DNA of 64,000 nt from an uncultured Erysipelotrichaceae bacterium (lineage in GTDB: Bacteria; Bacillota_I; Bacilli_A; RFN20; CAG-826), in NCBI GenBank assembly GCA_902800905.1, contig CADCGC010000011.1:14389-78388 (forward strand). The letters run 5' to 3'. Shown one piece after another: positions 17,452 to 41,651 of the stretch. The position numbers and the translations under genes were made by a program. The notes beneath the pieces are model-generated. The model was given only the letters and a program-made list of their open reading frames with translations. It searched no databases and had not been told where the DNA came from. The stretch's first letter is position 1; the number at the start of each line of letters is the position of its first letter.

Positions 17452-17464
17452 ACAAGTAGAAAAA

Positions 17465-17556: not shown

Positions 17557-17560
17557 TTAG

Positions 17561-18355: not shown

Positions 18356-18361
18356 TTAATT

Positions 18362-21833: not shown

Positions 21834-21878
21834 TTACAACAATTTCTAGATAATTATTTAAAAGAATATGAATCGTTA

Positions 21879-23308: not shown

Positions 23309-23338
23309 TTGACTATTTTTCAAAAAAACAGCTAAAAT
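23309..23338 (+). promoter_or_regulatory. Candidate promoter of the monocistronic fibre-subunit gene
   Basis: TTGACT at 23309-23314 and TAAAAT at 23333-23338 (18-nt spacer). Confidence 0.5.
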
Positions 23339-23479
23339 ATAGTTGCATCAAAAAGGTGACTTAGAACGTCCCATTCTACGAGCTTGATTGATGTATTCAA
23401 ACTTAACTATCATCCATTCAAAACAAATAGACGACAATTGAATGGTATTTTGTCGTTTAAATACAAGGAGATAATTAAA

Positions 23480-24616
23480 ATGAAAAAATCAAAAGTTGTC
23501 ATTCCTGCATTAGGTTTAATCGCTTTATCAACAGCCGCCTCTATTACAGGTACTGTTGCATGGTTCTCTGCAAACCAAAGCGTTTCAATTAAAGGTATGA
23601 CAGTTTCTACAAAAGTTGGAGATAACTTATTAGTCTCTGGCACAAACGCAAACGCAGCAAGTTATAGTACATCATTAGAACAAGAACGTACAGGTGTTCT
23701 CGAACCAGTTTCATCCGTTGATGGTGTTGACTTCTACTACACCGCAACAGACAACGTCCAAAATGGTGGTGACGCTATTGCAGACGAATACGTCTTATAT
23801 GCTGAAGGTACTTCATTATCAAATACTAATGCTGGAAAAACAAAATATGACGCTGATTTCCAAACCAATTATGCTTTAGAAGGTGTTGTTTCTGATTCTA
23901 ACGTCTATTATGGTTTCATCGATTACGCTTTCTATGTGAAAGCCGTTAATGGTGGTGCTGCTGACAAATACTTAATTTTACACGACTTAAACATCACTTA
24001 TGATGGAGATATCATTTCTGAAAAAGCATGGAGAGTTGCTGTCTTTGATGAAGCTGCTTCCGAATACGTTGCAATCGAAGGTGATGTCGCAGTAGGCGCA
24101 AGAAAAGCCATGCTTACTCCTTCAGGAGCTGCTAACTTCACAACTGGACAAGCTGTCAGCTCCACAAGTGGAACAGGTTCTGTCACATACACAAGTGCTG
24201 CTTGGCACTTAGACACAATCGCTGCTGGAGCAACCGAATATAACAAGATTACTGTTAGATTATGGCTCGAAGGCGAAGACAACACATGTAACAACGATAC
24301 ATTTGCAAGCTTAACAGCAAACTGGAAACTTGATGTTGAAGTTAAATTAGAAGACGCCAACACCAACGCTATCACAAATATTAGATCAGTCGCAGCTGTT
24401 GCTACAAAATCAACAACTACTGGTACTGTCGAACTTCATGGTGATACAGCTTCCTCATATCAATGGTATTTAGTTACTGGTAATTCTGCTATTAGTGGTG
24501 CAACCAGTGCCTCATACACAAACGATGGTGCTGCTAGAGATGTTTACTGCATCGTCAAGACCGCTGCTGGTAGAACATATAAATCCAATGTTCTCAGCCT
24601 TGATGCTGGTGCATAA
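23480..24616 (+). CDS. TasA/camelysin-like secreted protein with SipW-type signal peptide; putative major fibre subunit
   Basis: AAGGAG RBS 9 nt before the ATG at 23480. MKKSKVVIPALGLIALSTAASITGTVAWFSANQS signal. C-terminal core ITVRLWLEGEDNTCNND...NWKLDVEVKL shares the W-L-E-G motif with the downstream paralogues. It has its own promoter and a strong terminator. Confidence 0.7.
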   Translation: MKKSKVVIPALGLIALSTAASITGTVAWFSANQSVSIKGMTVSTKVGDNLLVSGTNANAASYSTSLEQERTGVLEPVSSVDGVDFYYTATDNVQNGGDAIADEYVLYAEGTSLSNTNAGKTKYDADFQTNYALEGVVSDSNVYYGFIDYAFYVKAVNGGAADKYLILHDLNITYDGDIISEKAWRVAVFDEAASEYVAIEGDVAVGARKAMLTPSGAANFTTGQAVSSTSGTGSVTYTSAAWHLDTIAAGATEYNKITVRLWLEGEDNTCNNDTFASLTANWKLDVEVKLEDANTNAITNIRSVAAVATKSTTTGTVELHGDTASSYQWYLVTGNSAISGATSASYTNDGAARDVYCIVKTAAGRTYKSNVLSLDAGA

Positions 24617-24637
24617 TTAGCAAACTAAACTCACAAA

Positions 24638-24667
24638 GAAATCCTCGATTCATTCGGGGATTTTTTC
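24638..24667 (+). terminator. Rho-independent terminator after the putative major subunit gene
   Basis: 9-bp stem aaatcctcg/cggggattt (one G-U) followed by T6. Confidence 0.8.
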
Positions 24668-24777
24668 TTTTTCTCGATCGCATTTCTTATATACACGCGT
24701 TCTTCTAATTTTTTATTTATTTAAAATAATGCTTGCATACTTGTTTTATTTAGTGTTATTTTATTAACGAGAAAAAA

Positions 24778-24898
24778 GCACAACCATAGTGATATGGTGC
24801 CGCAAAGCTAAAGGGTCTTAAGAAGAAGGATTAAGATAGCCAGTTGCCTTAGAGAGTCGTTCTCGGCCAATGCGTTGGATGATAGGCAACTGGCTTTT
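24778..24898 (+). promoter_or_regulatory. c-di-GMP-I (GEMM-I) riboswitch with long terminator-type expression platform (copy 3)
   Basis: GCACAAC-CATA-GTGA-TATGG-tGCCGCAAAGC-taaaGGGTCTTAAG...GATAGCCAGTTGCC. The 11-nt AGCCAGTTGCC (24838-24848) is perfectly complementary to GGCAACTGGCT (24885-24895), which is followed by TTTT. Confidence 0.85.
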
Positions 24899-24951
24899 GA
24901 TTCTCTATTGGGACATTAATTTAGCCTTTCCTTCTAGGCACACTCTCACTT

Positions 24952-25785
24952 ATGGAATACAATATTAGGTACGTTAACAGGAGAAAAAGACGCATTCGTG
25001 CGGCTATCATTGGTGGCATCTCGACAGTAGTGGTTGCCTCTTTAAGCATAGTTGCATTCTTGGGTCGATTTGTTGGTACATTTACTGTATCTTTAGATAC
25101 AGGAACTGTTAAACTTACTCTTGCTGAAGAAAGTGCATTCCTCACCTCAACATCATTCCTAAGAGTGAACAATCTAGCGCCATTTGAAGAATATACATAC
25201 ACATGGTTTAACGATGAATATTCTGAAGATGAGTTAGATAATGATATTTCTAATTACAAAATTGGATATCATTATGCTTCTGATGGAACGACCATCAAAA
25301 ACGTCAAGTTCTTTAAATATACTTTCTATTTGAAGAATGTTGGGTCAACTAAAGCTTTTTACGACTGCAAGATCAGAATTCTTGAGTCTAAAGCTTCAAA
25401 CGATAAAAGAAAACTCGATGATACATTAAGAGTTATGGTTTATCGTAATCCACTCAACGGATCTCATAATAAGAAAATATATGGTAAGGCCGTTAGACCT
25501 CGCACTAATGAACAAGGCGAACTTGATTATCGTCCTCCAATTTCAATGTCAGAAGAAATGGCGAGCTATTTAAGCCAACCATTCCCTGGATATGTTGATG
25601 ATACATTTGTATCGGGTGAATTAATCGCACAATATAAACGTGTTGAAATTGCCGTAAGTGAAGTAACAAGGTACACCCTCGTCACCTGGTTAGAAGGATA
25701 TATGTCCGGAACCGAAGCAGAGGAAAACGCACCTATTGGTGCAACAATCAAATTAGGAGTTGAAATAAACGCATATGAAAATTAA
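24952..25785 (+). CDS. TasA-like protein with Arg-rich N-terminus and TM segment but atypical cleavage region (candidate membrane-anchored base/anchor subunit)
   Basis: First ORF after riboswitch 3. RRKRRIRAAIIGGISTVVVASLSIVAFLGRFVGTFTVSLDTGTVKLTL lacks the A-W-[FY] motif. YTFYLKNVGST and VTWLEGYMSG...GATIKLGVEINA resemble TasA/camelysin core motifs. Confidence 0.6.
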   Translation: MEYNIRYVNRRKRRIRAAIIGGISTVVVASLSIVAFLGRFVGTFTVSLDTGTVKLTLAEESAFLTSTSFLRVNNLAPFEEYTYTWFNDEYSEDELDNDISNYKIGYHYASDGTTIKNVKFFKYTFYLKNVGSTKAFYDCKIRILESKASNDKRKLDDTLRVMVYRNPLNGSHNKKIYGKAVRPRTNEQGELDYRPPISMSEEMASYLSQPFPGYVDDTFVSGELIAQYKRVEIAVSEVTRYTLVTWLEGYMSGTEAEENAPIGATIKLGVEINAYEN

Positions 25786-26734
25786 TAAGAAATTAATCGT
25801 TGCTTCTTTATCAACTGCCCTTGGTCTAGGAATTGTCGGTAGTGTTACTGGCACTGTCGCCTGGTATCAATATTCAACTAAAGCCATCACTTCTATCGTT
25901 GGTGCAAACGCATCTCAAAGTGGTTTATTAAGAATCTCTACAGATGACAACAACTATAAGAAGGATCTTTACACAACTGATATCTTAGGTGCTGCAGAAA
26001 ACGCTGAAAGTAATGACTTTGACGGCAATTTTGAACCTGTCACTTTTGGTGGCGTTGCAAAAGACGGAGCTATGCCTTCTGATGCTTATCTTAATCCAAG
26101 ATATGGTCATCAACCATTAAATGAATGGAAATCAGCTAAAGGCAAAAACTACGAATATTTGCAATATGACCTCTACCTCAAAGCTGAAAAATATGACGAA
26201 ACTGCAAATGATTACATCCCAGTAGCTGGTTTACCAATCTACTTATCGAACATGGAAATCATTAATGGAACAGTCGGAAAAGACATCGCTGATGCTGTGT
26301 TTGTTCACATCGCAGTTGATGGAGGAGACAACTTCCTCATCAGTAGAACTGGTGCTGATGTTAACACTTATGGTGAATTAGATTTAGATAACGATTCCCA
26401 TAATGATCCATATTTTGGATATCAACCAGACATCGCTGACCCAGCTCATTACGACGATCCAGTTGCTTATGGCACAGATGGAACAAAGAACACTTCCTAT
26501 AGTGTTATTGCCGGTGCTAATTCTATTATTTCTCCTAGAGGAGAGGATGGCAGAATTGATCCAGCAACTGCAACAAAACTTTGTGACACCATTGATGGTG
26601 GCATTAAGTTAACAGTCACTATTTGGCTCGAAGGTTGGGCTATGGCTCAATTATGGAATCCAACTCAAACCGCTAACGCTCAATTCAAAATCGGTATGAC
26701 TTTTGATGTCGGCAGAGGCGCCTTTGAAGATTAA
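25775..26734 (+). CDS. TasA/camelysin-like secreted protein with SipW-type signal peptide (minor subunit paralogue)
   Basis: MKINKKLIVASLSTALGLGIVGSVTGTVAWYQYST. C-terminal LTVTIWLEGWAM...AQFKIGMTFDVG. Overlaps the preceding gene by 11 nt. Confidence 0.7.
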   Translation: MKINKKLIVASLSTALGLGIVGSVTGTVAWYQYSTKAITSIVGANASQSGLLRISTDDNNYKKDLYTTDILGAAENAESNDFDGNFEPVTFGGVAKDGAMPSDAYLNPRYGHQPLNEWKSAKGKNYEYLQYDLYLKAEKYDETANDYIPVAGLPIYLSNMEIINGTVGKDIADAVFVHIAVDGGDNFLISRTGADVNTYGELDLDNDSHNDPYFGYQPDIADPAHYDDPVAYGTDGTKNTSYSVIAGANSIISPRGEDGRIDPATATKLCDTIDGGIKLTVTIWLEGWAMAQLWNPTQTANAQFKIGMTFDVGRGAFED

Positions 26735-26748
26735 GGAGGGAACTAACT

Positions 26749-27735
26749 ATGAAAATGAATAAGAAATTAGTAGTTGCCACCTTATCAACCGTCATGGGTA
26801 TTGGTTTAGTTGGTAGTATCTCTGGTACTGTTGCTTGGTACCAATATTCCACAAGATCAATGGCAACCTTAATTGGTACAGAAGTATCTCACGCTGGCAC
26901 AGTCACATTAAGTACCGACGGAACAAACTACTCTGGTAGACTTTGGACCAACGATATCTTAGGTTCTAACAGTGTGAAATTCCATCAAGCTACCTTTGGT
27001 AAGCTTAATAATGATGGTTCTTTACCAGCTCAAGCATACTTAAATCCAGAAGCCGGCTATGGCGCTCTCAATTTATGGGACAAAGCAGTAGCAGGCGTGG
27101 ATTATGTTCAATTTGACCTCTATTTCAGAGCTCTTGAACTCAAAAATTCAAGTGATTTATATGAACGTGTCGCAAAAGACATCTATTTAACTGATGTCGT
27201 CATCGAAGATTTGGATAGTGGTAAAGATATTTCTGACGCAGTCAGAGTTCACTTCCAAAACAAGAATGACGCTACTGATAACTGGTTCTTATCAAAAGAA
27301 GCAGTCACAGGACAAAAAGTCGGTGCCTATCTTGACTTAGATAGAGATGGTGATCCAGATAAGGAACGTAGTGAATACATCTACGAACCAGATCCAAGTG
27401 CACCAGACTGCAAATATGGTCAATTTAGTGGCGACACACCACTTGAACAATTAGATACCAAAGGTATCGATGATACAATCGCGTCTGAAAACGCATCAAC
27501 AGGCGCCCTTGAAGATACAACTGGTAAATTCCACGTTACAACCTTAAATGCAACTGAATACGCTGCTAATAGCAACACAGATGTTTGCTACACAGTTACT
27601 ATTTGGCTTGAAGGTTGGCACGTCTTTAGCGGCGCAACCGACGCTATCTGGGATTTACAAAGTACATACGATGCAAGCTTCCATGTTGGTTTCACCTTTA
27701 ATGCTGGAAGTAATGTATTCGATGTTGATGCATAA
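26749..27735 (+). CDS. TasA/camelysin-like secreted protein with SipW-type signal peptide (minor subunit paralogue)
   Basis: AAGGAGGG RBS. MKMNKKLVVATLSTVMGIGLVGSISGTVAWYQYST. C-terminal YTVTIWLEGWHV...ASFHVGFTFNAG. Confidence 0.7.
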   Translation: MKMNKKLVVATLSTVMGIGLVGSISGTVAWYQYSTRSMATLIGTEVSHAGTVTLSTDGTNYSGRLWTNDILGSNSVKFHQATFGKLNNDGSLPAQAYLNPEAGYGALNLWDKAVAGVDYVQFDLYFRALELKNSSDLYERVAKDIYLTDVVIEDLDSGKDISDAVRVHFQNKNDATDNWFLSKEAVTGQKVGAYLDLDRDGDPDKERSEYIYEPDPSAPDCKYGQFSGDTPLEQLDTKGIDDTIASENASTGALEDTTGKFHVTTLNATEYAANSNTDVCYTVTIWLEGWHVFSGATDAIWDLQSTYDASFHVGFTFNAGSNVFDVDA

Positions 27736-27787
27736 TCATTACAATTTCGTTTAAAAATATAAAAATATCTGGAGAAAGGAGGAGCAA

Positions 27788-28945
27788 ATGAAAAGCATAA
27801 CTAAAGTTAGATTATTAATTTTAGCGATGAGCGCTGTTTCAGTTGTGTCAATGGTTGGATCAACCGCTGCGACTGTTGCTTGGTACGTCAATAGTACTGG
27901 TGCGAAAGTCACATATACAGGAACATCTGTTCAAAAGTCTACAAGACTTACTTTAGGATTAGTTGACGAAGAGAACAAATTCACTGACGCAGATTTAGTC
28001 ACATACAACTTAGAAAGAGAATCAGGCGCAACAGTTGATGGTAAGACCATTGTCTGGTCAAAATCATCAAGCATCATAAATGATGTTCTCACTAAATACC
28101 TAACTGAATATGGCTATGCAACATATCTCCTTTCTCCAGTAACTACAAAAGCTAGGGCAATTGATAGCACAGATGGTTTAACGCTTTACAAAGCTCCAGA
28201 AACATCTCAAACCGTTTTAGATGAAACTGCAGATCCAAAATCTTATATCACTCTCCCATTTGCATTCAAAATTGTTAATAGTAGCAATGAGAAAGTTCAA
28301 GATAAAGAAATTTGGTTAACCAATTCAATGGTTACGACAAGTTTAGCTAATAATGATGGTAATAGTGTGATTAGACTCTTTGTTGACAATCATCACAATA
28401 GTGAAAAATTCATTGTTAGACCTGCAGATAACTCTGATTCAACTGGTGAGACTGTAGTTGGAGGACTTTTAAACCTCGCTGGTGGAGATAGCACTGTCTA
28501 TGACTATGATTCAAATACTTTACACGAATATATTTATGGCGATTACGATAAGTCTGGTGGATTTGCACCAATTTATTCCGATTCAACCTATGAATATTTC
28601 CCTGGATTTGATGAAAATGAATATGACAATGTCAATGACACTCCATACGAAACAGCGTCGACATTCTATGCCAAACACAATAAGAATTGTTACCCAATAA
28701 CGAATTATAATGAACTTCAAAACAGATTCTTGAAGGCTCACTATCATACGATGGGAACCATTAGACCAACATCCACAAATGGTGTTTATAGTGGCGGTAA
28801 ACCAATCGCATATACAGAAAGCGCTTCAAAAATTGGATATTCAACAATCTCGATTTATGTTGAAGGATGGGATCATGCCTTAACCGATGACAAAATCGAT
28901 GTACAATTCAATCTTTCAATGACATTTGAAATTAATACACTTTAA
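27788..28945 (+). CDS. TasA/camelysin-like secreted protein with SipW-type signal peptide (minor subunit paralogue)
   Basis: AAGGAGGAG RBS. MKSITKVRLLILAMSAVSVVSMVGSTAATVAWYVNST. C-terminal STISIYVEGWDHAL...VQFNLSMTFEIN. Confidence 0.7.
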   Translation: MKSITKVRLLILAMSAVSVVSMVGSTAATVAWYVNSTGAKVTYTGTSVQKSTRLTLGLVDEENKFTDADLVTYNLERESGATVDGKTIVWSKSSSIINDVLTKYLTEYGYATYLLSPVTTKARAIDSTDGLTLYKAPETSQTVLDETADPKSYITLPFAFKIVNSSNEKVQDKEIWLTNSMVTTSLANNDGNSVIRLFVDNHHNSEKFIVRPADNSDSTGETVVGGLLNLAGGDSTVYDYDSNTLHEYIYGDYDKSGGFAPIYSDSTYEYFPGFDENEYDNVNDTPYETASTFYAKHNKNCYPITNYNELQNRFLKAHYHTMGTIRPTSTNGVYSGGKPIAYTESASKIGYSTISIYVEGWDHALTDDKIDVQFNLSMTFEINTL

Positions 28946-28953
28946 TTCCTTTT

Positions 28954-30064
28954 ATGAAAAGAAAACAGATTATTCTTACTCTAAGTGTAGGCATAATCGC
29001 TTTAGGTACGATAGGAGTTGGAGCTTCTGTTGCGTGGTATGTCAATAGTAACAACTTATATGTTAATGCGATTGATATCACAATTAGCAGTGGTCCAGAA
29101 CTCTTAATTTCAAGAAGCACCAATCTTGACAGTTTTGTGAGCGAACTTGATTTATCAAGCGAACCAAAAAAGAGCGACTTTGCTCCTGTCACAAGTGCAT
29201 ATTCTTCTGACTGGATTAATAATAAAAGTGATAAACCAATTTTCTATGATGACACAATGAACTTCATTTACCCTGAAAATGGAAGTCGTAAAATCACAAC
29301 AGATATTGGTTATTATCAAGAAACACTATATTTATATAGTGATACAAACGCTGATGTAATTATTGATCCAAATAATACGTACTTAAAAGCTAATGCTTCT
29401 TTTAATAAACGCGTACGCACAGGAAATCAAAGAAACTGCTAATCAAGAAAATGTTTCTTCTGATTATCTCAAATATCGAGATATGACAGTGGAACAAATC
29501 GCTGATAGATTAAACAAGCTTCCTGAAGCAATGAGATTCTCAGTGCTTGTACCAGATGAAGAAGTATATCAATACGGAATTATTGATCCAAACAAAGACC
29601 AAACCAAAATTGTTGAATATGGTGGTCTACTAGACGTTAATATCGATGGATACTTTGATAGCTTCCATGATGGAAATGTCAACAAAGAACATTTCTATGG
29701 TGATATTAATGATCCAAGTAAAATCGTCTATGCTGAATCAGAATTAAATGATTCAGATTACGTAGATCCTACTAAAGATACAAGTGCGTTCAATGCACGC
29801 CACGGGGCAAATATTCAAAGATTCGATAAAGAAGCCTCAATTAATAACGGACTCGTCATTAATAAAGAACCATCTCTCGGGTTATATGACTTCAGTCCAA
29901 TGAAAGAAAATAAACCATTCGTTATTCGTTGCAACGAATATGAACCAAGAAAAATCGTCTTAACAATCTATATTGAAGGCTGGGATTTAGAAAGTGTTAA
30001 TTACACGATGGGAGCAAGCTTTATTGCCTCTCTCGGCTTCAGGGTTGATAGACCAAGTAAATAA
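28954..30064 (+). pseudogene. TasA/camelysin-like paralogue interrupted by a 1-nt frameshift (or sequencing error)
   Basis: 28954-29442 encodes MKRKQIILTLSVGIIALGTIGVGASVAWYVNSN... and stops at 29440-29442. The +1 frame is open from 29387 and carries the family C-terminus LTIYIEGWDLESVNY...ASLGFRVD up to 30064. Confidence 0.65.
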
Positions 30065-30078
30065 GGAGAAAGTTAGGT

Positions 30079-31593: not shown

Positions 31594-31606
31594 TTAAAAG
31601 GATTAT

Positions 31607-33817
31607 ATGGCTAGCAGCAACAAAAAACTCTTCCAAAAATATGTCGAAAAGATGAACTCCTTCAACAAGGACAAAAATGTTGAAGCGATTTATGATTCTT
31701 TACTTAATGGAAAGAATTCATATATTAGATTAACAAGAAAAGGTTCATCTTCTTTTGACCCAACTTGGATCGATGTAATTGAAGACTGCTTATACGATTT
31801 AGGAGAAATCATTAATAATCCTCGTGAAGTCACTAAAACCGAAAGTAGCATTACCCCAGTTGAACTCGCTAAAAAAATTGATGGAGAATCCGTTGTCCAT
31901 CTCGCGAGCCACACTCAATATATTAAAGAAGTGGATGAAGACGGTAATGTCGTTCCTTCGAAAATCTTATCTCACTATAATGTCGAAGACATTCATACCT
32001 ATGAAAATAGATTCATCGCGACATTTATTAGAAGATTACTTCTCTTTATTGAAAAGAGATATGAATTTATCGAAAAGACCGTTAATTTAACATGTAACGA
32101 TGTTTTAATGGTCAAAAACAAATCAATCGTCGATGGCCAAGAAGTTGAAATCGAAACCAAAATCACGATTAAAAAAGACATCATTGATGAAAGTGCAAAA
32201 CACGCGAAAGAATATATTGAACGTATTTTTAATATGCGCGATTACATCAAATATTACTATAATTCTCCATTTATGAAGGCTCTTAAGAACGAAAAAGACG
32301 TTCGTAAGCCAATCCTTCAAACAAATATCATCCGTAAAAATCCAAAATACAGAAAATGTTACGAAACATTCGTTTTCATTGAAAGGTTTGAATCTTTAGG
32401 TGTGTCTTATCACGTCGATGAGAACTATCAAACTTTTAACGAAAACGAAAGAGAAGAGATTAACTATCTCATGTTATCTAGCTTCCTTTCTGTTCAAAAT
32501 GACCATGAATTTGCTTCTATTAAAAAGAATAGTAAGACCTATAAACCAAGAATCCTTACTAGTATTGATGATGAGAAGTTCGTTTATGGTGACCTTTTAA
32601 AAGGTCCAATCGAATTCGTACGAGTGGATCAAGCCTATAGAGACTATTTACACGCTCAAGTGAGAGAAGATTTACCACTTCACCCAAATAAATACGAAAA
32701 AGAATATTACAAAGAAGAATATGATCTTAAGAAAGCTGAGAAGCTCAATCAAAAAGAATTAGATAAATTAATCGCTCGTAAAGAAAAAGAAATCGCTGAG
32801 TGGGAGAAATATGTTGAAAAACTCATCGCTCAAAGAGAACTTGAAGAAGCGAAGCAAAGACAAAAAGAACTCGAAGAACTTCGTAAATACCATGAATCTC
32901 TTATTGAAATTAGAAGAAAACGTATCATCGAAGAAGCTGAGAAGAATAAAGATCCATATGATGGACCAATTTATCGTCCAGAAGAACAGGCTAAAACTCC
33001 AGAAGTGCCTCTAGAAGTTGAATTAGCCCAGATGTCGAATGAAATCCCATCTGAAAGTGAAACTCCTCTTAATGAACCTGTTAGTGAACCTAATAATGAA
33101 GAAACAGTTTCTAATGAAACTCCAGTTGAGGCTCCAATAGAAGAAAACGTTCCTGAAGTAGCAGAAACCGCTCCTCAGGTAGAAGAGGCTCCATTAGCTG
33201 AAGAGCCAGTTCAAGAAGCCGCTCCAGTAGAGGAAGCTCCTCAAGAAGAAGTACCTGCTGAAGATGTTCCTGCTACAGAAGCACCTGTTGAAGAGTCACA
33301 AGTCGAAGAACCAGCTCCTGAGGTGGTGGAAGAAGTTCCTTCTGAAGAGTCTCAAGAACCTGAAGAAGAAATAGAGAATGCTCCAAAGAAAGAACAAGTT
33401 ATCTATCGTGTTATGGGTGACGCGCAAGTCATTTATGTCGACGGACATAAAGAAACTGTTTACGCTGCTAGCGATGAAGAATATGAACTAGTGGAAGAGA
33501 ATAAAGAAGAGGAACAACCTTTGGTTGAAGAGACTAAAGAAGAACCAAAAGTCGAAGAAAAACCAAAACCAAAGAGAATGCCTCCTCAACGTAAAAAGAA
33601 AGAAACTCCTCCTCAAGAAGAACAAGTTGATTACTCTACTAAAGAGGGAGATGTTCTTAAAGTCATTCCAGGAAAATTCATCGTTAAAACCAATAACGGT
33701 TACTATATTAGTGATGAACAGTTCTCTGATCATCGTGGGGACGCCACAATATTTGACGACTTCAATGTCGCTAATCAAAAGAAATCTCAATTTGGTGGAA
33801 AGGTCATTAAGTTATGA
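31607..33817 (+). CDS. McrC N-terminal/DUF2357-like protein lacking a recognisable nuclease domain; long coiled coil and acidic Pro/Glu-rich region
   Basis: 736-aa ORF. HTYENRFIATFIRRLLLFIEKRY and ILQTNIIRKNPKYRKCYETFVFI resemble the DUF2357/McrC partner-binding region. I found no D...(D/E)xK block. A K/E-rich heptad-like segment is followed by about 125 aa of P/E/V/A low complexity (about 33000-33400) and a small C-terminal domain. Confidence 0.5.
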   Translation: MASSNKKLFQKYVEKMNSFNKDKNVEAIYDSLLNGKNSYIRLTRKGSSSFDPTWIDVIEDCLYDLGEIINNPREVTKTESSITPVELAKKIDGESVVHLASHTQYIKEVDEDGNVVPSKILSHYNVEDIHTYENRFIATFIRRLLLFIEKRYEFIEKTVNLTCNDVLMVKNKSIVDGQEVEIETKITIKKDIIDESAKHAKEYIERIFNMRDYIKYYYNSPFMKALKNEKDVRKPILQTNIIRKNPKYRKCYETFVFIERFESLGVSYHVDENYQTFNENEREEINYLMLSSFLSVQNDHEFASIKKNSKTYKPRILTSIDDEKFVYGDLLKGPIEFVRVDQAYRDYLHAQVREDLPLHPNKYEKEYYKEEYDLKKAEKLNQKELDKLIARKEKEIAEWEKYVEKLIAQRELEEAKQRQKELEELRKYHESLIEIRRKRIIEEAEKNKDPYDGPIYRPEEQAKTPEVPLEVELAQMSNEIPSESETPLNEPVSEPNNEETVSNETPVEAPIEENVPEVAETAPQVEEAPLAEEPVQEAAPVEEAPQEEVPAEDVPATEAPVEESQVEEPAPEVVEEVPSEESQEPEEEIENAPKKEQVIYRVMGDAQVIYVDGHKETVYAASDEEYELVEENKEEEQPLVEETKEEPKVEEKPKPKRMPPQRKKKETPPQEEQVDYSTKEGDVLKVIPGKFIVKTNNGYYISDEQFSDHRGDATIFDDFNVANQKKSQFGGKVIKL

Positions 33818-34818
33818 GCGACAAAGTGAATAATGAAGTGATCCAAGAAGTTGTGGAGGAAACTCCTAAGAAAAAGAAAAGAGAAAAAAAGCCTAAAAGT
33901 AAGGCTCTTAAAATCATCGAATGGGTGTTACTAGGAATCTTCTTACTAGTATTTGGCTTCTTAGGAGCTGCTCAAATCGATGGAATGGTTAACAAAGCCA
34001 AAAACAATGATGAAGAAATCCGTTTCGGAGTAGGAACATTCATCGTTCTTACTAACTCCATGGAACCTTTATATAAAACGCAAAGCGCGTTAATTACATA
34101 TAAAGAAGAAATGGATGTCATCGTTAACGCTCTCAAGGGAGTTAAAGGTGCTGAAGTTGTCAGTGATCCGGAACATAATCCCGAAGATGTTGGCAAAGAC
34201 TTCATCATGACATTCCCTGGATACAATGCTAGCCTAGATGAGACCGATCCTAATAAAAAAGACATCAATAACGGCATTGACATTACATTCAAAAACAACG
34301 ATACAGGAATAAAACCTTCAGAATTTGACTTAAGAACTCCTGAATTCGTAACTGGCCAAATGATAGCTATTGGTCAGGTAATGACTCACCGTATTAGAGA
34401 ACTTCATATTAGGCAAAATGTTGAATTTGGCAAAGGAAAATATGTATTTGTCACATCAGGTATTAATGATCAAGGCGAATACAGCAAAATGGGACAATAT
34501 CAATTTGTCACCGAAAAATTATATTTAGGAACCGTGAAAGTTAATTCACCATTCCTAGGAGGAATCTTCTATTTCGTTTCCTCACCATGGGGCTTATTAG
34601 TGTTATTGCTTCTCCCCGCTGCCTACTTAATCATCGTTTCCGCTAAAGACATCTTTAAAGCTTTAAAGGAAACTGAAGAAGGTGAAGCAAAAGAAAATAA
34701 AACACCAAGTAGTCTAGATACTATCTCTAATGAAGATAGAGAAAGACTCAAACGAGAATTACTCGATGAAATGATTTCCAAGAAACAAGGAGAAAAGAAA
34801 GAGGATGAACAAAAATAA
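33814..34818 (+). CDS. Signal peptidase I of the ER/archaeal (SipW-like, S26B) type with Lys-rich N-terminus, large insertion and C-terminal TM
   Basis: The start overlaps the upstream stop (ATGA). TM helix, then VLTNSMEP (catalytic Ser box), VMTHRI (His box), SGINDQG (cf. KGDNN), and a C-terminal TM LLVLLLLPAAYLIIV. Confidence 0.75.
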   Translation: MSDKVNNEVIQEVVEETPKKKKREKKPKSKALKIIEWVLLGIFLLVFGFLGAAQIDGMVNKAKNNDEEIRFGVGTFIVLTNSMEPLYKTQSALITYKEEMDVIVNALKGVKGAEVVSDPEHNPEDVGKDFIMTFPGYNASLDETDPNKKDINNGIDITFKNNDTGIKPSEFDLRTPEFVTGQMIAIGQVMTHRIRELHIRQNVEFGKGKYVFVTSGINDQGEYSKMGQYQFVTEKLYLGTVKVNSPFLGGIFYFVSSPWGLLVLLLLPAAYLIIVSAKDIFKALKETEEGEAKENKTPSSLDTISNEDRERLKRELLDEMISKKQGEKKEDEQK

Positions 34819-36361
34819 TAAGATACTTATTATTTACAATATCTTGTTTGCCGCTTGTGGCTTAATCTTTTTAGCATCCTTATCAATTCAAATCGCCACT
34901 GTTATATCACCAAGTTTATTTGGAGATGTTACTACAGCGATTGATTTCATTGTTCTTGTTATTTGTATTGTCTCAGGTTTTGGAACAGTGTTTTCACTTA
35001 TCTCAGCCTTTAAAGAAAGAGATTTTATCGCTCAACTCCAAGCTGAAAATACTTACACATTAGGACACGCGATTGCTTTCTATAATCTTGATGCTTTTAG
35101 ACAAAAAGTATCTATGTTCATTCGTTCTCCATTATCAAAGAACAAAAAACAAGCGATTCTTGTTTTCTCAACCGCTTCACTTGAAACTTCATTTAATGCA
35201 TTTAAAAATGATGCGATGACTGAACTCAACTTTAATGTTGCTTCATTCTTAACAGGTTTATTTGAAAACCCAAAGAGTGAATTTGCTAATAAGCGTTATG
35301 TCTTTGGATTTAATAGAGGAATCTTCCTTATTTATTCTTTTGAAGCTGAAGAAGAAAGAGTGAAACAACTTGTAAGTGTAATTCTTACTAAAGTTTATGA
35401 CATAGTCAAAGAATATGATCTCAAGATTTGGGCTCAACCATTCTTTGGTCTTAGAGAAGTGAACAAAGGAGAAAATATCATCAGTGCGATTGAAGATGCG
35501 TTCTCCGCTAGAAGCACTGGAGAAGCAAACTTTGAATCATTCTCAAGATTTGTTCCTCAAATCACCAACCAAGAATCAACAAACTTCTTAAAAGAATTAC
35601 AAGACGCTTTGAATAATGGCGAATTCGTTCCATATTATCAACCAAAATATTCCTTAAAGAAGAAAGAAATTGTCTCTGCTGAAGTTCTTTGTCGATGGAA
35701 TTCTCCTACTAGAGGATTATTAACTCCTGGTGTCTTTATTGATAAAGCTGAACAATTTGGTTTAATCTCTGCAATTGATATTTATATCTTTGAAGCAGCC
35801 CTAAAAGACTTGTCTAACTCTATTAGAAGAGGTAGAAGAGTTATTCCTGTTTCCACAAACTTCTCATTATATGAGTTCTTCTCACATTCATTCTTAGACA
35901 CAATTGTTGCTTTACTACAAAAATATCAAGTTCCACCTTCACTCGTGGAAATTGAAATTACTGAAACAACCTCTCAAGTTAACCAATTCTTATCAGTTTC
36001 CGTTATTAAGAAACTTAAAGATAAAGGCATCAGAGTCTTAATGGATGACTATGGTGTTGGATATTCTCAAATTGATAACTTGAAGAATATTCCTTTCGAT
36101 GCGATTAAAATCGATAAATCATTCGCTGATGAATTACTTGAAGATGAAAAGACACGCTCAATCGTGAAGTTCTTAGTGGAACTTGGCCATGTCAATGACA
36201 TGGAAGTCATTATCGAAGGTGTTGAAAAGAAAGAACAAGTTGATATATTAAGAAAGATGGGAGTCGACACAATTCAAGGATTCTATTATTCTAAAGCTTT
36301 AAGCTTTGCGGATTATGAAGAATTCCTTAAGAACAATCCATTTGAAGGAGGAAAGAAATAA
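34805..36361 (+). CDS. Membrane-bound c-di-GMP phosphodiesterase (EAL domain, catalytic residues apparently intact; degenerate GGDEF-like middle domain)
   Basis: Two N-terminal TM helices. EAL blocks are all present: YYQPKY, AEVLCRW, STNFS, EIEITET, MDDYGVGYS, IKIDKSF, IEGVE, IQGFYYSKA. Confidence 0.8.
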   Translation: MNKNNKILIIYNILFAACGLIFLASLSIQIATVISPSLFGDVTTAIDFIVLVICIVSGFGTVFSLISAFKERDFIAQLQAENTYTLGHAIAFYNLDAFRQKVSMFIRSPLSKNKKQAILVFSTASLETSFNAFKNDAMTELNFNVASFLTGLFENPKSEFANKRYVFGFNRGIFLIYSFEAEEERVKQLVSVILTKVYDIVKEYDLKIWAQPFFGLREVNKGENIISAIEDAFSARSTGEANFESFSRFVPQITNQESTNFLKELQDALNNGEFVPYYQPKYSLKKKEIVSAEVLCRWNSPTRGLLTPGVFIDKAEQFGLISAIDIYIFEAALKDLSNSIRRGRRVIPVSTNFSLYEFFSHSFLDTIVALLQKYQVPPSLVEIEITETTSQVNQFLSVSVIKKLKDKGIRVLMDDYGVGYSQIDNLKNIPFDAIKIDKSFADELLEDEKTRSIVKFLVELGHVNDMEVIIEGVEKKEQVDILRKMGVDTIQGFYYSKALSFADYEEFLKNNPFEGGKK

Positions 36362-37119
36362 TGATCGTGGTCATTGGTGCGTCACATGATGACATCCTTT
36401 ATTTCGAGAAAGTTCTTTATAACAGACGTGAAGAAGTTTTCTTAAACCGTTACGTTGCTTATATTGGAACGGTCTTCAATCAAGAACTTTTAGTTATGGG
36501 TGACCAATATGGTTCCATTCTTTCTAGTGCGGTTGTTTCTCATATTTTAAATAAATATTATGTCGATTTAGTAATCTGTGTCGGTCGTTGCTTTGGTATT
36601 GATAAACGCACCAAGAGTGGTGACATTGTTATTTCAAATAACATCATAGATGTTAATGCTGATTTATCTTTAGTTAAAAACGTTGGAATTGGACAAATTC
36701 CAGGTTTCCAACATGAATTCAAAGTTCAAAACGATATTATCAACTACCTTAAAAAAGGTGTTGGTAAGAGAAGCTATATCACTTCTTACGACGCAGTCTA
36801 TTTATCAAGTGATAATTTAGCAGAAGAAACATTAAAGATTTTAAATCAAAATCGAGGAGTATATGGCATCACCGATGAAAGAATCGTCTTTGATCATAAT
36901 AGCGCTGGTGTCGCTTTAGCGGCCACCTTGAAAGACATTCCATATGTCTCGATTAAAGTCGTTCAAAATCTTTTAGATAAAGAAGAAAATATCGATGACT
37001 ATCTTAAAGTTCTCGATAAATATATCGATTTAGGTAAGTCAGTTGTTTCTACAATTGGTGATATTGGTAGAAATGATATCTTAAGAGGAGGTATTGGTAA
37101 TGAATACAAAGGGTCGTAA
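36361..37119 (+). CDS. MTA/SAH nucleosidase (Pfs, PNP_UDP_1)-like protein, catalytic residues apparently substituted
   Basis: MIVVIGASHDDILYF ... GDIVISNNIIDVNADL ... GQIPGF aligns by eye with the Pfs blocks MKIGIIGAMEEEV ... GDIVVSDEARYHDADV ... GQLPGC. Positions matching the Pfs acidic catalytic residues read SHDD, DHNS and VQN. Confidence 0.5.
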   Translation: MIVVIGASHDDILYFEKVLYNRREEVFLNRYVAYIGTVFNQELLVMGDQYGSILSSAVVSHILNKYYVDLVICVGRCFGIDKRTKSGDIVISNNIIDVNADLSLVKNVGIGQIPGFQHEFKVQNDIINYLKKGVGKRSYITSYDAVYLSSDNLAEETLKILNQNRGVYGITDERIVFDHNSAGVALAATLKDIPYVSIKVVQNLLDKEENIDDYLKVLDKYIDLGKSVVSTIGDIGRNDILRGGIGNEYKGS

Positions 37120-40100
37120 TTTTCTCGATCGTCAAAAGAACCTATCTTCCTTAGGAAGATTCTACCTAATCGTTCCAGCGGTTATTTTAGGTGTGGATGT
37201 TATCGTTTCCATTATTTTCGCGGTATTATATCTCGCTAAAGAAGAAAGAGTGTTCTTAATTCTTTTAATTGTCTTCTTTGCCTTATCTTTACTTGCCTAT
37301 ATTGCTTTCTCTATCTTTATGATGAAAAGATTACACGCGGTGTATTATGAACAAATCTATTTAACAACTTATTCCAATATCAAAAAACTCGCCGCTAACG
37401 ATACAAGTTTTGATTTCTATCGTGATTTGAATATCGATGAAGTCGATAGCATGAATGACGCCATGCATGATATTAAAAAGAAATTCGACAATTCTTATTT
37501 AGTGGTCACAACACCAGATTACACTAATCTTAACTTAGAATATGTCGATAAGAATCGTAATTTAATTACCTTTGAATCTTTCAAAAAGAATCTCTTTAAT
37601 ATCATCCATGTTTCTCAATCCTTTAAAAACACCTTAATCTCTGTTTCTTATATGTTAGATGATGAATTGTCAGAAGATGATAAGAATAGAATTCTTAACC
37701 TATATTTCCATACATTTAATGACTATGAAAGAACATTATTCATGTTTGGAGAAGACGGAAAATCTTTAATCATTTATCTACCAGTTATCGACTCTTTAAG
37801 TAGAGTTAAAGAACAATTAGAGCTCACCGCTAGTGATAGTTCAATCGTCATTAGAGAAGCTGGTGGACTTAGAAATATCGCTCCTAGATATGCTCTTGTA
37901 GTCTATCCATATTCTAGTGAAGAATATCTTTTAAGTGATCTTAGATATGCTAGAAGACAAAACAAGAATATGAATATCTTCATTCCTAATAGAATTGAAA
38001 ATAATATTGGCAAAAATCTCTTAATGAGTAGCACGATGAATCATAGCTATATGTCAAAGATTCTTTCTAAGATTTCTACATTAGAGTATAACGCGACAAA
38101 CAGTGAAGAAAGTGAAACCGCAATTAAAGCTTTATTTGATGAATTAGTGAAATTCTTAGAATTAGATGAAGCCGGTATCATCGTTTACGATGATTCTACT
38201 AAAGCGTATCGCCTACTCCTCGCTAGTGAAGGAGCAAATATCTTCCAAAAGAATAAAACTATTGACCAATCCTTCATTTCTTCTTTAGAAAGTGCTTCTG
38301 AAGATGATGGTTCATATTATTTCTCAACCAGAAATCACGCGAATAAAGTCTTAGGCCGTCAACTTGATTTCTTTGGAATTAAAAGTGGATATTATCAAGT
38401 CGTTACTAATGCGGACGGACGAACTATCGCTTTGATTTACTTCTTTAATAGATATCGCGATTTCTATATCGATTCCTATTTAAGAGAATCATTCTTCATG
38501 CTCTGTTTAAGAATCGCTCACTACTTTGAAAAGAAAGAACTTCTTGATTATCTTGATCTCCGTAATAGCGAGAATGAATATATCCTCTCCATGAGTGATT
38601 ATATGCTTTATAAATCAAACGATGAATTTACCCTTACATATTTATCTAATGATTTAAAGAAATTCATTCCAAAAGCCACAATTGGAGGATATTGTTATAA
38701 AGAATTATATGGATTTGATCGTCCATGTAACGACTGTCCAAAAAGAACCTTTAAAGCTAAAGAAGTTACTCTTGGTAAGAAGAGATTTGAATTATCTTTG
38801 AACCTTAACGAAAGAAAGAAACAAAACTACGCAATGTTATTAAAAACTCTTTCTGATGACGAAGATGTTGATTCAAGAGTCCTCTTTAATGAAAACTATC
38901 TCACATATTCCTATTATTCATTACATAAAGTCTTAAAGAACGAATATACATCAAGTGGTCGTGGTTATGTTTTACTTTTAACCATCGATAACTTTGATTC
39001 ATTCTTAGAGAGCCAAAAAGAACAAGGATTGCTTTTCTGTGTCCGTTCATTAATTAGAAATATCAAAAACAAATTAAAGATCTCTGATGTCTATCTCTAT
39101 AACCCATCGACAATTGCGATTCATCTTCCATCATATGGTCATGCGGATGTTCTTAATATTTGCGAAAACATCTATGATGTTTCTAAAGAACATTATTTAG
39201 ATGATGGTAGTGATGATCAATTTAAATTAACATATCTTCCTGTTGGTTATCCTCGTGGATATGCTTCAGTTGATGACTTTATGAGACATATGGGTGATTT
39301 CTATCGTTCTGATAAGAATGAAAGAGGCAAAGACTTCATTTACTTCTGTGACTATGCGATTAGCCGTAGTGCTTCTAAACGTGAATTCATGTTATCCGTC
39401 ATTGAAAATGAATTCTCTGGTCAATCTACAGCCTCTGTTAATCTTCAACCAATCGTTCAAGTTTCTAACAAACACATCTATGGCGCAGAAATTCTTCTCC
39501 GTATTAACGACGTTCATAGAGGAGTCTTCTTTAACGCGGAAGAGATTTCACGTATCGCTGAAAAAGAAAATAAGACTCATATCATTACTGAATCAATCAT
39601 TAACTTTGTTGGTAACTTATATAAAGAGCACGGTAAAGGTGCATTCAAAATTAACGATTTTGAACGTATCGCGATTAACATCGACCAAACTTACTTAAAA
39701 GATCCAAACTTAATTAAATCAGTTATTGAACTCGTTGAGAAAAATAACATTCCTGATAACTTCATTTCCTTTGAAATTCCTGAGGATATGATTCCAGATA
39801 ATATCGACAAGATTAAAGACTTCGCTAATCAGTTGAAGAGTTACCATATCTTCTTCTCTTGCGATAGATTTACTGGAGAATATATCGGTAGTGAAAAGCT
39901 TAAGGATTTAGGATTTAACGAAGTTAAGATTGCTCGTAACTTAATCATTAAGATTGATAAAGACCCAATTCAACTTAAGGCGGTTGAAGATATCGTGAAG
40001 AACGCTCATAACGTTGGTATTAAAGTTGCTGTCGTTGGTGTTGAAAACGAAGCACAATATAATATTCTTAAGAATCTAGATAATGAAATGGTGGTCCAAG

Positions 40101-40165
40101 GTTACTACTTCTATAAACCGCTTACTAGAAGTGACCTTATTAGTGCGATTGTTTCATATAACTAG
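37100..40165 (+). CDS. Large membrane protein with degenerate GGDEF-like and degenerate EAL domains (LapD-like candidate c-di-GMP receptor)
   Basis: GAGGAG RBS then ATG at 37100. Two TM helices. Cys motif CYKELYGFDRPCNDCPKR. GGDEF-like region lacks GGDEF (YNPSTIAIHL). The EAL fold is retained (LQPIVQ, AEILLRI, INID, SFEIPED, VQGYYFYKP), but DDxG reads CDRF, KID reads KIA and EGVE reads VGVE. Confidence 0.65.
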   Translation: MNTKGRNFLDRQKNLSSLGRFYLIVPAVILGVDVIVSIIFAVLYLAKEERVFLILLIVFFALSLLAYIAFSIFMMKRLHAVYYEQIYLTTYSNIKKLAANDTSFDFYRDLNIDEVDSMNDAMHDIKKKFDNSYLVVTTPDYTNLNLEYVDKNRNLITFESFKKNLFNIIHVSQSFKNTLISVSYMLDDELSEDDKNRILNLYFHTFNDYERTLFMFGEDGKSLIIYLPVIDSLSRVKEQLELTASDSSIVIREAGGLRNIAPRYALVVYPYSSEEYLLSDLRYARRQNKNMNIFIPNRIENNIGKNLLMSSTMNHSYMSKILSKISTLEYNATNSEESETAIKALFDELVKFLELDEAGIIVYDDSTKAYRLLLASEGANIFQKNKTIDQSFISSLESASEDDGSYYFSTRNHANKVLGRQLDFFGIKSGYYQVVTNADGRTIALIYFFNRYRDFYIDSYLRESFFMLCLRIAHYFEKKELLDYLDLRNSENEYILSMSDYMLYKSNDEFTLTYLSNDLKKFIPKATIGGYCYKELYGFDRPCNDCPKRTFKAKEVTLGKKRFELSLNLNERKKQNYAMLLKTLSDDEDVDSRVLFNENYLTYSYYSLHKVLKNEYTSSGRGYVLLLTIDNFDSFLESQKEQGLLFCVRSLIRNIKNKLKISDVYLYNPSTIAIHLPSYGHADVLNICENIYDVSKEHYLDDGSDDQFKLTYLPVGYPRGYASVDDFMRHMGDFYRSDKNERGKDFIYFCDYAISRSASKREFMLSVIENEFSGQSTASVNLQPIVQVSNKHIYGAEILLRINDVHRGVFFNAEEISRIAEKENKTHIITESIINFVGNLYKEHGKGAFKINDFERIAINIDQTYLKDPNLIKSVIELVEKNNIPDNFISFEIPEDMIPDNIDKIKDFANQLKSYHIFFSCDRFTGEYIGSEKLKDLGFNEVKIARNLIIKIDKDPIQLKAVEDIVKNAHNVGIKVAVVGVENEAQYNILKNLDNEMVVQGYYFYKPLTRSDLISAIVSYN

Positions 40166-40190
40166 TTAAATTATCATTTATTACGAAAAT

Positions 40191-40211
40191 AAGCGCGAGA
40201 AGCGCTTTTTT
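40191..40211 (+). terminator. Rho-independent terminator ending the riboswitch-3 operon
   Basis: aagcgc-gagaa-gcgctt followed by a T run. It is the first convincing terminator after 24898. Confidence 0.75.
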
Positions 40212-40242
40212 CTTATATAATCAATTAGAAGAGGATTTCAAT

Positions 40243-41638: not shown

Positions 41639-41651
41639 AAGGAGAAGTTAT

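Follow-up and report, generated by a model that had tools for sequence, protein, structure and literature searches.

A conserved locus of the candidate CoCoPALM class, with a SipW-type signal peptidase, a secreted subunit family, and a c-di-GMP riboswitch, in an uncultured Erysipelotrichaceae bacterium

In a survey of McrBC systems, Bell et al. (eLife 2024, PMC11090510) reported "another large clade" marked by fusion of the GTPase to an FtsB-like transmembrane (TM) and coiled-coil domain. They tied this clade to signal peptidases and pilus assembly under the name CoCoPALM ("pilus assembly linked to McrBC"), placed it as sister to the CoCoNuT type IV restriction systems, and deferred its treatment to a later paper (PMC11090510). 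No later CoCoPALM paper was found in the literature, and CoCoPALM is not mentioned in the text supplements of the CoCoNuT paper. Among fibers made from SipW-processed subunits, polymerization through the mature N-terminal strand is established for TasA (PMC9674648, PMC10151520). Here, we analyzed a 64-kb stretch of DNA from an uncultured Erysipelotrichaceae bacterium (hereafter, the window), in which a membrane-anchored McrB-like GTPase and a McrC-like partner are encoded in one operon with secreted subunits, a SipW-type signal peptidase, and a set of proteins related to cyclic di-GMP (c-di-GMP).

The best explanation of this locus, as judged from its sequence, is that it belongs to the named but uncharacterized CoCoPALM class, and we consider it fairly probable that it is a CoCoPALM system building a c-di-GMP-induced, SipW-processed surface filament, with the McrBC-derived GTPase serving as an assembly platform. 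A first-pass annotation had presented the locus as a TasA-like fiber system with no known assembly machinery and of a kind not yet described. The second part of that description is not supported, because the association of McrBC homologues with a signal peptidase had already been named, from an independent line of work. What is new is the subunit family, the candidate anchor subunit, the putative ON-type riboswitch, and the conserved c-di-GMP module, none of which is reported in the literature that we found. That literature also contained nothing linking this type of locus to c-di-GMP, to SipW substrates, or to Acholeplasma, and nothing relevant on PDC-M26, a candidate phage-defense family considered below.

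The operon and its McrBC-derived GTPase pair

Re-examination of the window sequence bore out all the observations that the first-pass annotation had made on the locus, and the gene content of the region was exactly that of its gene list. Six paralogous genes encode the subunits. The gene of the major subunit is monocistronic, and the other five open an 11-gene unit that also encodes the McrB-like GTPase, the McrC-like partner, the SipW-type peptidase, an EAL phosphodiesterase, a Pfs-like protein, and a degenerate EAL protein. All features of the locus lie on the + strand, and the gaps between its genes range from −25 to +52 nucleotides (nt). Pattern scans agreed that the major subunit is transcribed separately from the operon, with its own promoter and a strong terminator: a promoter-like site, a consensus match only, is located at 23309–23338 (TTGACT-18-TAAAAT, 10 of 12 matches), and an intrinsic terminator with a 13-bp stem followed by a T-run is located at 24636–24676. 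The operon starts with a c-di-GMP-I riboswitch, the aptamer of which was placed by Rfam at 24767–24851, and is closed at 40191–40217 by AAGCGCGAGAAGCGCTT followed by TTTTCTT, the first convincing + strand terminator past the operon in the pattern scan, which placed the two terminator hairpins at 24636–24666 and 40191–40207. The reported absence of sortases and LPXTG proteins also held, as a motif scan of the whole window turned up none; a "sortase TLxTC" pattern match at 41284–41703 (− strand) proved to be an antisense open reading frame (ORF) and no sortase. Usher, type IV, and Tad components were likewise absent from the Pfam and NCBIfam scans of the locus genes, which were not aimed at them.

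The McrB-like protein (30079–31593) is a membrane-anchored AAA+ GTPase. It begins with an acidic tail of approximately 52 amino acids (aa), followed by a TM helix (residues ~53–83), an R/K-rich, heptad-rich, coiled-coil-like sequence, and the GTPase domain; given this order, the GTPase domain should be cytoplasmic. It matched the McrB structures 6hz4, 6ut6, and 7vsr (E = 1e-4 to 4e-4), and its GxxGxGKT, DE, and N-N-D-D motifs aligned with the GxxGxGKT, DE, and NTAD of Escherichia coli McrB. Because the signature, N-N-D-D in the window and N-K-D-D in relatives, aligns to the N-T-A-D of McrB without gaps, it can be read as "NxD followed by D" or as NxxD. No Pfam match indicated FtsB or DivIC homology of the N-terminal region. 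The McrC-like partner (31607–33817) is composed of an N-terminal DUF2357 domain, a coiled-coil-like region, an acidic/proline-rich linker, and a small C-terminal domain. Its N-terminal 300 aa, searched alone, matched Pfam DUF2357, the N-terminal domain of McrC, with 32.8 bits (cut-off 23.3), and the full-length protein had no Pfam match; a long charged region resembling a coiled coil is visible in its sequence. Neither a PD-(D/E)xK nuclease in the McrC-like partner nor a DNA-binding N-domain in the McrB-like protein was found with Pfam, NCBIfam, or PADLOC. The matches to McrB structures, the alignment of the motifs, and the DUF2357 score above the cut-off substantiate the earlier assignment of the two proteins as an McrB/McrC-derived pair.

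The McrB-like GTPase was scanned for in one genome per GTDB species, and it was present in at least 535 species. The hosts were mostly rumen or gut metagenome-assembled genomes (MAGs) named "Bacilli bacterium" or labeled Erysipelotrichaceae, and also included Candidatus Enterosoma, Enteromonas, Acholeplasmataceae, and the cultured Acholeplasma laidlawii. Synteny was counted in the best 80 loci from species-level genomes (related loci are cited below by their numbers, such as L004), with denominators that vary by feature. The McrC-like gene was located directly downstream of the McrB-like gene in all 71 loci compared, and no other part of the locus is as tightly conserved as this McrBC-derived pair. 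A SipW-like gene followed the pair within three genes in 50 of 51 loci and was found immediately upstream in 5 of 63. The EAL gene and the Pfs-like gene were each present in 46 of 50 loci. On the other side, the immediate upstream neighbor of the McrB-like gene was a subunit gene in 56 of 63 loci, and three or more subunits were encoded upstream in 32 of 34. The subunits, the peptidase, and the McrB-like gene are conserved as a unit across related genomes, which supports the view that the locus genes form one conserved functional unit and not a chance neighborhood.

The arrangement extends to distant relatives. The GTPase is 47% identical to its orthologue in L001, a 345-kb metagenome contig of higher GC content with subunit relatives labeled Clostridia, and 49% identical to that of A. 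laidlawii. In L001, a c-di-GMP-I riboswitch, an odd-type subunit (see below), and three major-type subunits are followed, after one gene on the opposite strand, by SipW, the McrB-like gene, the DUF2357 gene, a second SipW, and a GGDEF-EAL gene. The order in A. laidlawii is GGDEF-EAL and EAL genes, riboswitch, odd subunit, two subunits, SipW, McrB-like gene, DUF2357-like gene, and a second SipW. The McrC-like partner matched its L001 orthologue with a BLASTP E value of 7e-46, and the A. laidlawii orthologue carries a C-terminal Rho_N domain. Giant McrC-like partners occurred in L046 (4599–11594; 2,331 aa) and L064 (9017–15760; 2,247 aa), compared with 455–970 aa elsewhere, indicating that the C-terminal part of this protein is highly expandable. 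Directly downstream of the CoCoPALM core of A. laidlawii 8195 (L080, 14364–17366) lies a second SipW-dependent cluster, which encodes a genuine Peptidase_M73/TasA-family protein of 189 aa and a third SipW, small in size (169 aa). Three further small proteins belong to the cluster, and SipW-type signal peptides are present in at least two of these.

The GTPase domain, and this domain only, also matched the PADLOC candidate family PDC-M26A (E = 7e-41), which raises the alternative that the McrB/McrC-like pair is a CoCoNuT-like anti-phage or conflict module and that the secreted proteins are surface-remodeling or decoy effectors. The sister relationship of the clade to the CoCoNuT type IV restriction systems and a RhuM-like gene fragment near the locus would fit such a role, but PDC-M26 is itself a candidate family, the GTPase is anchored by a TM helix, and no nuclease, HEPN, or DNA-binding domain was detected. 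Furthermore, the chromosomal gene order is fixed in 80 or more species and under c-di-GMP control of a housekeeping type, in contrast to the patchy spread of defense islands. We regard a defense function as very unlikely.

The signal peptidase gene (33814–34818) overlaps the McrC-like gene by 4 nt and encodes a protein of the SipW type (S26B, endoplasmic reticulum/archaeal). As claimed earlier, it is the sole signal peptidase of the window: no other ORF resembled a signal peptidase, and no S26A motif was found in the window. The SMEP and THRI boxes that had marked it as a Ser/His-type enzyme are present, and their Ser and His were invariant in 24 aligned orthologues. Its NCBIfam SipW match had an E value of 1.6e-10, with 40.8 bits, below the cut-off of 190, and searches against PDB sequences returned chance matches only. 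In the window's clade, an insertion of approximately 90 aa separates the Ser and His boxes, and the GDN box reads GIN, GTN, or GAN; the orthologues of L001, L080 (A. laidlawii), L072, L079, and L083 lack the insertion and have kept GDN. The last TM segment is followed by a charged helix, ...[DE]R[EK]RLK[KR]ELL[DE]EM..., that is conserved out to the L001 contig and Acholeplasma and, according to the positive-inside rule, should be cytoplasmic. At 43729–44097 (− strand) of the window, a 122-aa protein with two TM segments has a C-terminal tail, LTDEQKEALKRELLQELQG, resembling this cytoplasmic tail (phmmer against the L001 SipW, E = 1.3e-4). Similar ORFs of 116–135 aa adjoin the locus in L008, L015, L019, L020, L050, L055, L060, L061, and L073. 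The 122-aa protein may offer the coiled-coil proteins a further docking site.

The secreted subunit family

The paralogy of the six subunit ORFs was confirmed by profile–profile comparison with hhalign. Four of them, the minor subunits m1 (25775–26734; GTVAWY signal and WLEGW motif), m2 (26749–27735; recognized by its signal and C-terminal motifs and by hhalign), and m3 (27788–28945; ATVAWY signal and YVEGW motif) and the sixth subunit, aligned with one another at probabilities of 99.3–100% (100% for m1 and m2) and with the major subunit at 96–99% (98.7% for m1). The "odd" subunit, encoded by the first gene of the operon, aligned with m1 and m2 at 93–95%. A K/R-rich n-region and a hydrophobic core followed by the signal motif [GA][TS]-V-A-W-[FY] were recovered in five of the six paralogues (starting at 23480, 25775, 26749, 27788, and 28954), as described in the first pass; the exception is the odd subunit at 24952, which has GTFTVSL instead. 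The C-terminal [WY][LIV]EG block is present in all six. Nine proteins in the window have an A-W-[FY] signal motif, and across the surveyed loci, the subunit signal is mainly [GAS][TS]xAW[FY]. Orthologues of m3 numbered 55 in the 80 surveyed loci. The sixth subunit (28954–30064), which is the upstream neighbor of the GTPase gene in relatives, is split by a frameshift into ORFs 28954–29442 and 29393–30064. The cause is one extra A in a short A-run at 29407–29409, where the window reads AATAAACG and L004 reads AATAACG. L004, a rumen Bacilli MAG with a GTPase 93% identical to that of the window, is the closest relative, and its sixth-subunit orthologue is intact; the SipW gene of L004 is itself split into two ORFs. 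Both disrupted genes may be real pseudogenes or assembly errors.

The major subunit (23480–24616) has the signal ...ITGTVA|WFSANQ, followed by an N-terminal strand, a beta-sandwich core, and a PKD-like C-terminus. A collection clustered at 90% identity contained 269 homologues of it, all unannotated and none with a Pfam domain, and the profile of the subunit family matched 4,504 clusters at 50% identity. The subunits form a new beta-sandwich family for which there is no Pfam family.

The first-pass annotation had called these subunits TasA-like. If this were correct, they would be divergent TasA/camelysin homologues that assemble themselves outside the cell, with the odd subunit resembling TapA and the McrBC-like pair as an unrelated passenger. 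The traits expected of SipW substrates are present, since the signal motif is found in five of the six paralogues and SipW is encoded in the same operon, as for TasA. Beyond the signal peptide, however, no similarity to TasA was found with Pfam, NCBIfam, hhalign, or Foldseek. No paralogue matched a Peptidase_M73 or TasA model of Pfam or NCBIfam at E ≤ 0.1, and none of 60 homologues matched PF12389 (Peptidase_M73) at E ≤ 1. As a positive control, a neighbor of the A. laidlawii locus (L080, 15059–15628) matched PF12389 with E = 4e-7. PGAP names this protein "TasA family protein" and the orthologous A. laidlawii subunits "hypothetical". When the profiles of the major subunit, m1, m2, and m3 were compared with TasA-family sequences using hhalign (with the B. 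subtilis TasA sequence entered by hand), the alignments were limited to the signal peptide, and for the sixth subunit, a short stretch of 21 columns was aligned (probability 26%). The subunit family profile had no match among PDB sequences. The TasA fiber 8aur did appear among the weak Foldseek matches of the subunit core, at E = 0.08 and TM-scores of 0.23–0.26, and a true TasA-family gene with its own SipW adjoins the A. laidlawii locus, but against this reading, the McrBC-like pair is never missing, and the SipW gene overlaps it. Membership of the TasA/camelysin family was rejected, as the Pfam, NCBIfam, PDB profile, hhalign, and two Foldseek searches were all negative past the signal peptide; a TasA-family fiber is an improbable account of the locus, and the subunits should not carry the TasA label in annotation.

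AlphaFold monomer models of the major subunit had pLDDT (predicted local distance difference test) values of 88.4 (full length) and 88.7 (core only). The core was remodeled alone because the Foldseek matches of the full-length model were spurious multi-Ig matches, apart from a PKD domain match of the C-terminal ~80 aa. In the full-length AlphaFold2 model, residues 16–38 were unstructured, including the first ~11 mature residues (28–38), with pLDDT < 50, and when the core was modeled alone, pLDDT was < 50 over the first 18 mature residues (28–45). The mature N-terminal stretch WFSANQSVSIKGMTVSTK is nonetheless among the most conserved parts of the family, with alternating hydrophobic residues and near-invariant W28, F29, S30, N32, V35, V37, G39, M40, V42, and T44. 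This combination of conservation, alternating hydrophobicity, and low pLDDT resembles what is expected of a donor strand. A Foldseek search of the core against the PDB found no relative at E ≤ 1e-3. Subunits of donor-strand filaments were included among its weak matches, namely the Sulfolobus thread 7pnb (TM-score 0.36), CanA, the TasA fiber, the type 1 pilus, and PapE, and this is suggestive only.

The lack of a significant structural match to any pilin would also fit a system without filaments, in which the c-di-GMP-induced products processed by SipW are adhesins or matrix proteins working as monomers or as a coat, and the GTPase pair regulates SipW or secretion. The major subunit ends in a PKD-like domain of an adhesion type, and two riboswitch-controlled gene pairs upstream of the locus (see below) encode proteins of approximately 1,000 aa with the same signal peptide. 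Set against these features are the conserved mature N-terminal strand that is left unpacked in the monomer models, the occurrence of several donor-strand filament subunits among the weak fold matches, and the set of paralogues itself, as one major, several minor, and one signal-anchor subunit are a set-up typical of pili. A non-filamentous role appears unlikely to us, and the filament remains our preferred reading.

The odd subunit (24952–25785) may supply the base of such a filament. Its N-terminus is of the signal-anchor type, with a basic cluster, a TM helix, and FLGRFVGTFTVSL, and without an A-W-[FY] site. This architecture (basic cluster, TM helix, and FLGRxxG[TS]FT[VI]SL) recurs across the orthologues found, and the motif G[TSN]F.[VI][SK]L was matched in 25 of 45 of them. 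The gene occurs in a single copy and opens the operon, after the riboswitch, in 35 of the 48 loci for which an operon head could be defined. The odd subunit is probably not cleaved by SipW and would tether or terminate the polymer at the membrane, making it a candidate membrane anchor, terminator, or initiator. A subunit tethered in the membrane would be useful in the wall-less Acholeplasma, in which anchoring by sortase is impossible.

Predicted control of the operon by c-di-GMP

The c-di-GMP-I (GEMM-I) aptamer at 24767–24851 scored 57.8 bits with Rfam RF01051 (gathering score 35) and 78.3 bits with our own model, R1. It is located in the 5′ leader, 101 nt upstream of the first operon gene. 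The expression platform (24838–24906) is a terminator hairpin, the 5′ arm of which is the 3′ strand of the aptamer: AGCCAGTTGCCT (24838–24849) pairs with AGGCAACTGGCT (24885–24896), followed by TTTTGATTCT. The 3′ strand of the aptamer, AGCCAGUUGCCU, has its perfect complement in AGGCAACUGGCU, located 35 nt farther on, and a U-rich tract comes next. The minimum free energy fold of the ligand-free leader is this terminator hairpin (−52.6 kcal/mol, z = −4.3). Because the same strand serves both structures, an aptamer stabilized by its ligand should prevent termination, and the anti-termination logic suggests that the riboswitch is an ON switch. The complement of the aptamer strand together with a T-run is also present in nine relatives. 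A cruder scan for exact complements gave 21 of 44 relatives, which is unreliable as a frequency because stems with G-U pairs or mismatches are missed, and approximately 10 of these were true complements of ≥8 nt, the remaining 7-mer matches being perhaps due to chance.

Linkage of the riboswitch to the locus was assessed with our own covariance model, which was built from 13 aptamers and searched over the 450 nt upstream of the operon's first gene. Of the 48 loci for which the operon head could be defined, 39 had an aptamer in this interval. This number underestimates the linkage, since the walk to the operon head mis-assigned L001, L080, and a few others, and most of the misses were artifacts of head finding. 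In Acholeplasmataceae-type loci, two or three c-di-GMP-I aptamers occurred in tandem (L082, 14846–15143; L081, 5931–6329; and L077, 2033–2252), and those of L081 are directly upstream of the odd subunit gene.

The operon ends with three genes that form the rest of the c-di-GMP module. The EAL phosphodiesterase (34805–36361) is a membrane protein of 518 aa (Pfam EAL, E = 5.5e-65), in which ExLxR, N, ExxE, DDFG, KxD, EGV[ED], and QG are all present and, with few exceptions, kept in 52 aligned sequences; the predicted phosphodiesterase therefore has intact catalytic motifs. The last gene (37094–40165) encodes a membrane protein of 1,023 aa, for which the first pass had proposed a degenerate GGDEF-EAL architecture. 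The degenerate EAL domain was recovered (Pfam, E = 1.5e-37), but the GGDEF part was not detected by Pfam. In 34 aligned sequences of this protein, DDFG is changed to [CV]D[QR][YF] in nearly all, EGVE is changed to a [VI]G[VI]E-type sequence with loss of the first Glu in nearly all, and KxD is usually lost. Motif loss of this kind is the pattern of the EAL-domain receptors FimX and LapD, and its sequence makes the 1,023-aa protein a candidate c-di-GMP receptor. The riboswitch, the intact EAL phosphodiesterase, and the conserved degenerate EAL protein match the three layers of c-di-GMP control that had been postulated. Between the two EAL genes, the Pfs-like protein (36361–37119) was verified as PNP_UDP_1/MTAN-like (Pfam PNP_UDP_1, E = 8.5e-13) and matched methylthioadenosine/S-adenosylhomocysteine (MTA/SAH) nucleosidases (MTANs) of the PDB with E values down to 4e-9. 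In the alignment, it has Q-N at the catalytic S-D of MTANs and ASHDD at AMQEE, and on these replacements, it may be a non-catalytic nucleoside-binding module.

Other genes for c-di-GMP signaling surround the locus. Immediately upstream, 22315–23229 encodes a membrane GGDEF diguanylate cyclase (Pfam GGDEF, E = 1.9e-28; RFGGDEF motif), which is a probable local source of c-di-GMP and has homologues adjoining the related loci L004, L008, L022, L047, and L053. Near the start of the window (717–3017), GGDEF motifs can be seen in the sequences of two more membrane proteins, which makes this part of the genome unusually dense in genes for c-di-GMP signaling. Two further c-di-GMP riboswitches lie upstream of the locus, in 13501–17296 and 17455–21376, the second scoring as a c-di-GMP-I-GGC variant (59.9 bits; gathering score 59). 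Each precedes a pair of genes for proteins of ~263 aa and 964–1,004 aa, both with GTFAWF signal peptides. These proteins matched no Pfam or NCBIfam family and, in hhalign comparisons, had the signal peptide alone in common with the subunits of the locus; counterparts of the gene pairs are found near the locus in L009 and L022. Between this adhesin-like upstream pair and the GGDEF gene are two short tandem ORFs (21525–22193; 102 and 104 aa), the second of which matched the RhuM virulence family in its initial part (E = 5e-9), and both resemble gene fragments.

A proposed mechanism and comparison with known systems

The preferred reading, a CoCoPALM filament, can be set out as follows. Binding of c-di-GMP to the aptamer would prevent termination and turn the operon on. 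SipW would then cleave the subunits at GTxA|W[FY] and free the conserved N-terminal strand, and this strand, which AlphaFold leaves unpacked in the monomer, would insert into a neighboring subunit by donor-strand complementation to give a fiber. The odd subunit would stay in the membrane and anchor or terminate the fiber. On the cytoplasmic side, a ring of the GTPase and the McrC-like partner may dock, via their coiled coils, on the conserved cytoplasmic tail of SipW, and the complex could act as an assembly or gating platform. The EAL phosphodiesterase would provide negative feedback, with the degenerate EAL protein as the putative c-di-GMP receptor.

Several observations weigh against this reading. 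The SipW-signal model TIGR04088 was not reported for the paralogues at E ≤ 0.1 in NCBIfam. With the GDN aspartate of the peptidase replaced (GIN/GTN), catalysis would depend solely on the Ser/His pair. The window carries a frameshift in the sixth subunit, and the best Foldseek match of the core (E = 0.018, with TM-scores ≤ 0.36) does not amount to a significant structural relative. To these must be added the match of the GTPase domain to a candidate phage-defense family. We infer both the formation of a filament by donor-strand complementation, with which the data are consistent, and a physical link of the GTPase pair to SipW or to the subunits.

A bolder version of the model, which we offer tentatively and consider rather doubtful, is that the GTPase ring, the nuclease-less McrC-like protein, and SipW constitute a new nucleoside triphosphate (NTP)-driven machine that assembles, and perhaps retracts or gates, donor-strand filaments made from a new family of pilins in Bacillota that are monoderm or lack a wall. 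It would represent a distinct pilus-assembly pathway, switched by c-di-GMP and using an uncleaved signal-anchor pilin as its anchor. If the model is true, the surface-structure system encoded by the locus is very common and has so far escaped experimental study. The GTPase of a restriction enzyme would have been recruited to envelope biogenesis, and the system would explain how fibers could be anchored in wall-less or sortase-less bacteria. The riboswitch, phosphodiesterase, and degenerate receptor would make up a compact circuit within one operon. As the locus is present in the cultivable A. laidlawii, the model is directly testable.

In comparison with known systems, the locus shares most with CoCoPALM. 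The McrB-like GTPase carries a TM helix and a coiled-coil-like segment at its N-terminus, the DUF2357 McrC homologue next to it also has a coiled-coil-like region and lacks a detectable nuclease, and genes of the signal peptidase family are tightly associated. The FtsB homology was not reproduced by Pfam, and the signature is N-[NK]-D-D, for which NxD and NxxD are indistinguishable. The published description of CoCoPALM, which runs to a few sentences, omits the subunit family, the signal-anchor subunit, the riboswitch, and the EAL, degenerate-EAL, and Pfs-like module. From the McrBC type IV restriction systems (E. coli; 6hz4 and 6ut6), the pair has retained the AAA+ GTPase with Walker A and B motifs and an N-x-x-D-type signature, as well as the DUF2357 partner. 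However, a TM helix and coiled coil take the place of the DNA-binding N-domain, no PD-(D/E)xK was detected, and the operon context is secretion instead of restriction.

The operons tapA-sipW-tasA of Bacillus subtilis, sipW-calY/tasA of B. cereus, and sipW-bsaABC of Clostridium perfringens also encode a dedicated ER/archaeal-type peptidase with its substrates, and they share with the locus a GTxA|[WYF]F-type signal peptide and an accessory first gene. Polymerization through the mature N-terminal strand would be a further common trait, although it is only expected here. Unlike these operons, the locus has subunits that are not Peptidase_M73/TasA homologues, five to six paralogues (one of the signal-anchor type), an McrBC-derived pair, and a c-di-GMP riboswitch, and its system also occurs in the wall-less Acholeplasma. 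Archaeal donor-strand filaments (the Sulfolobus 0406 thread 7pnb, the Pyrodictium CanA cannulae, and bundling pili) and chaperone-usher pili resemble the subunits in their beta-sandwich and N-terminal extension, and the archaeal filaments also in processing by an archaeal-type signal peptidase. These were the only filament classes among the weak fold matches, at TM-scores ≤ 0.36 and with none significant. To our knowledge, neither class uses an NTPase, and none is known to be controlled by a c-di-GMP riboswitch. Such control is instead found in Clostridia and Bacilli, where c-di-GMP-I riboswitches regulate adhesin and pilus genes, for example those for surface proteins of C. difficile; these genes likewise have GEMM-I in the 5′ leader and an ON logic based on anti-termination. 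The difference lies in the scope of the switch, as the riboswitch of the operon governs a whole machine, including its own phosphodiesterase and degenerate EAL protein.

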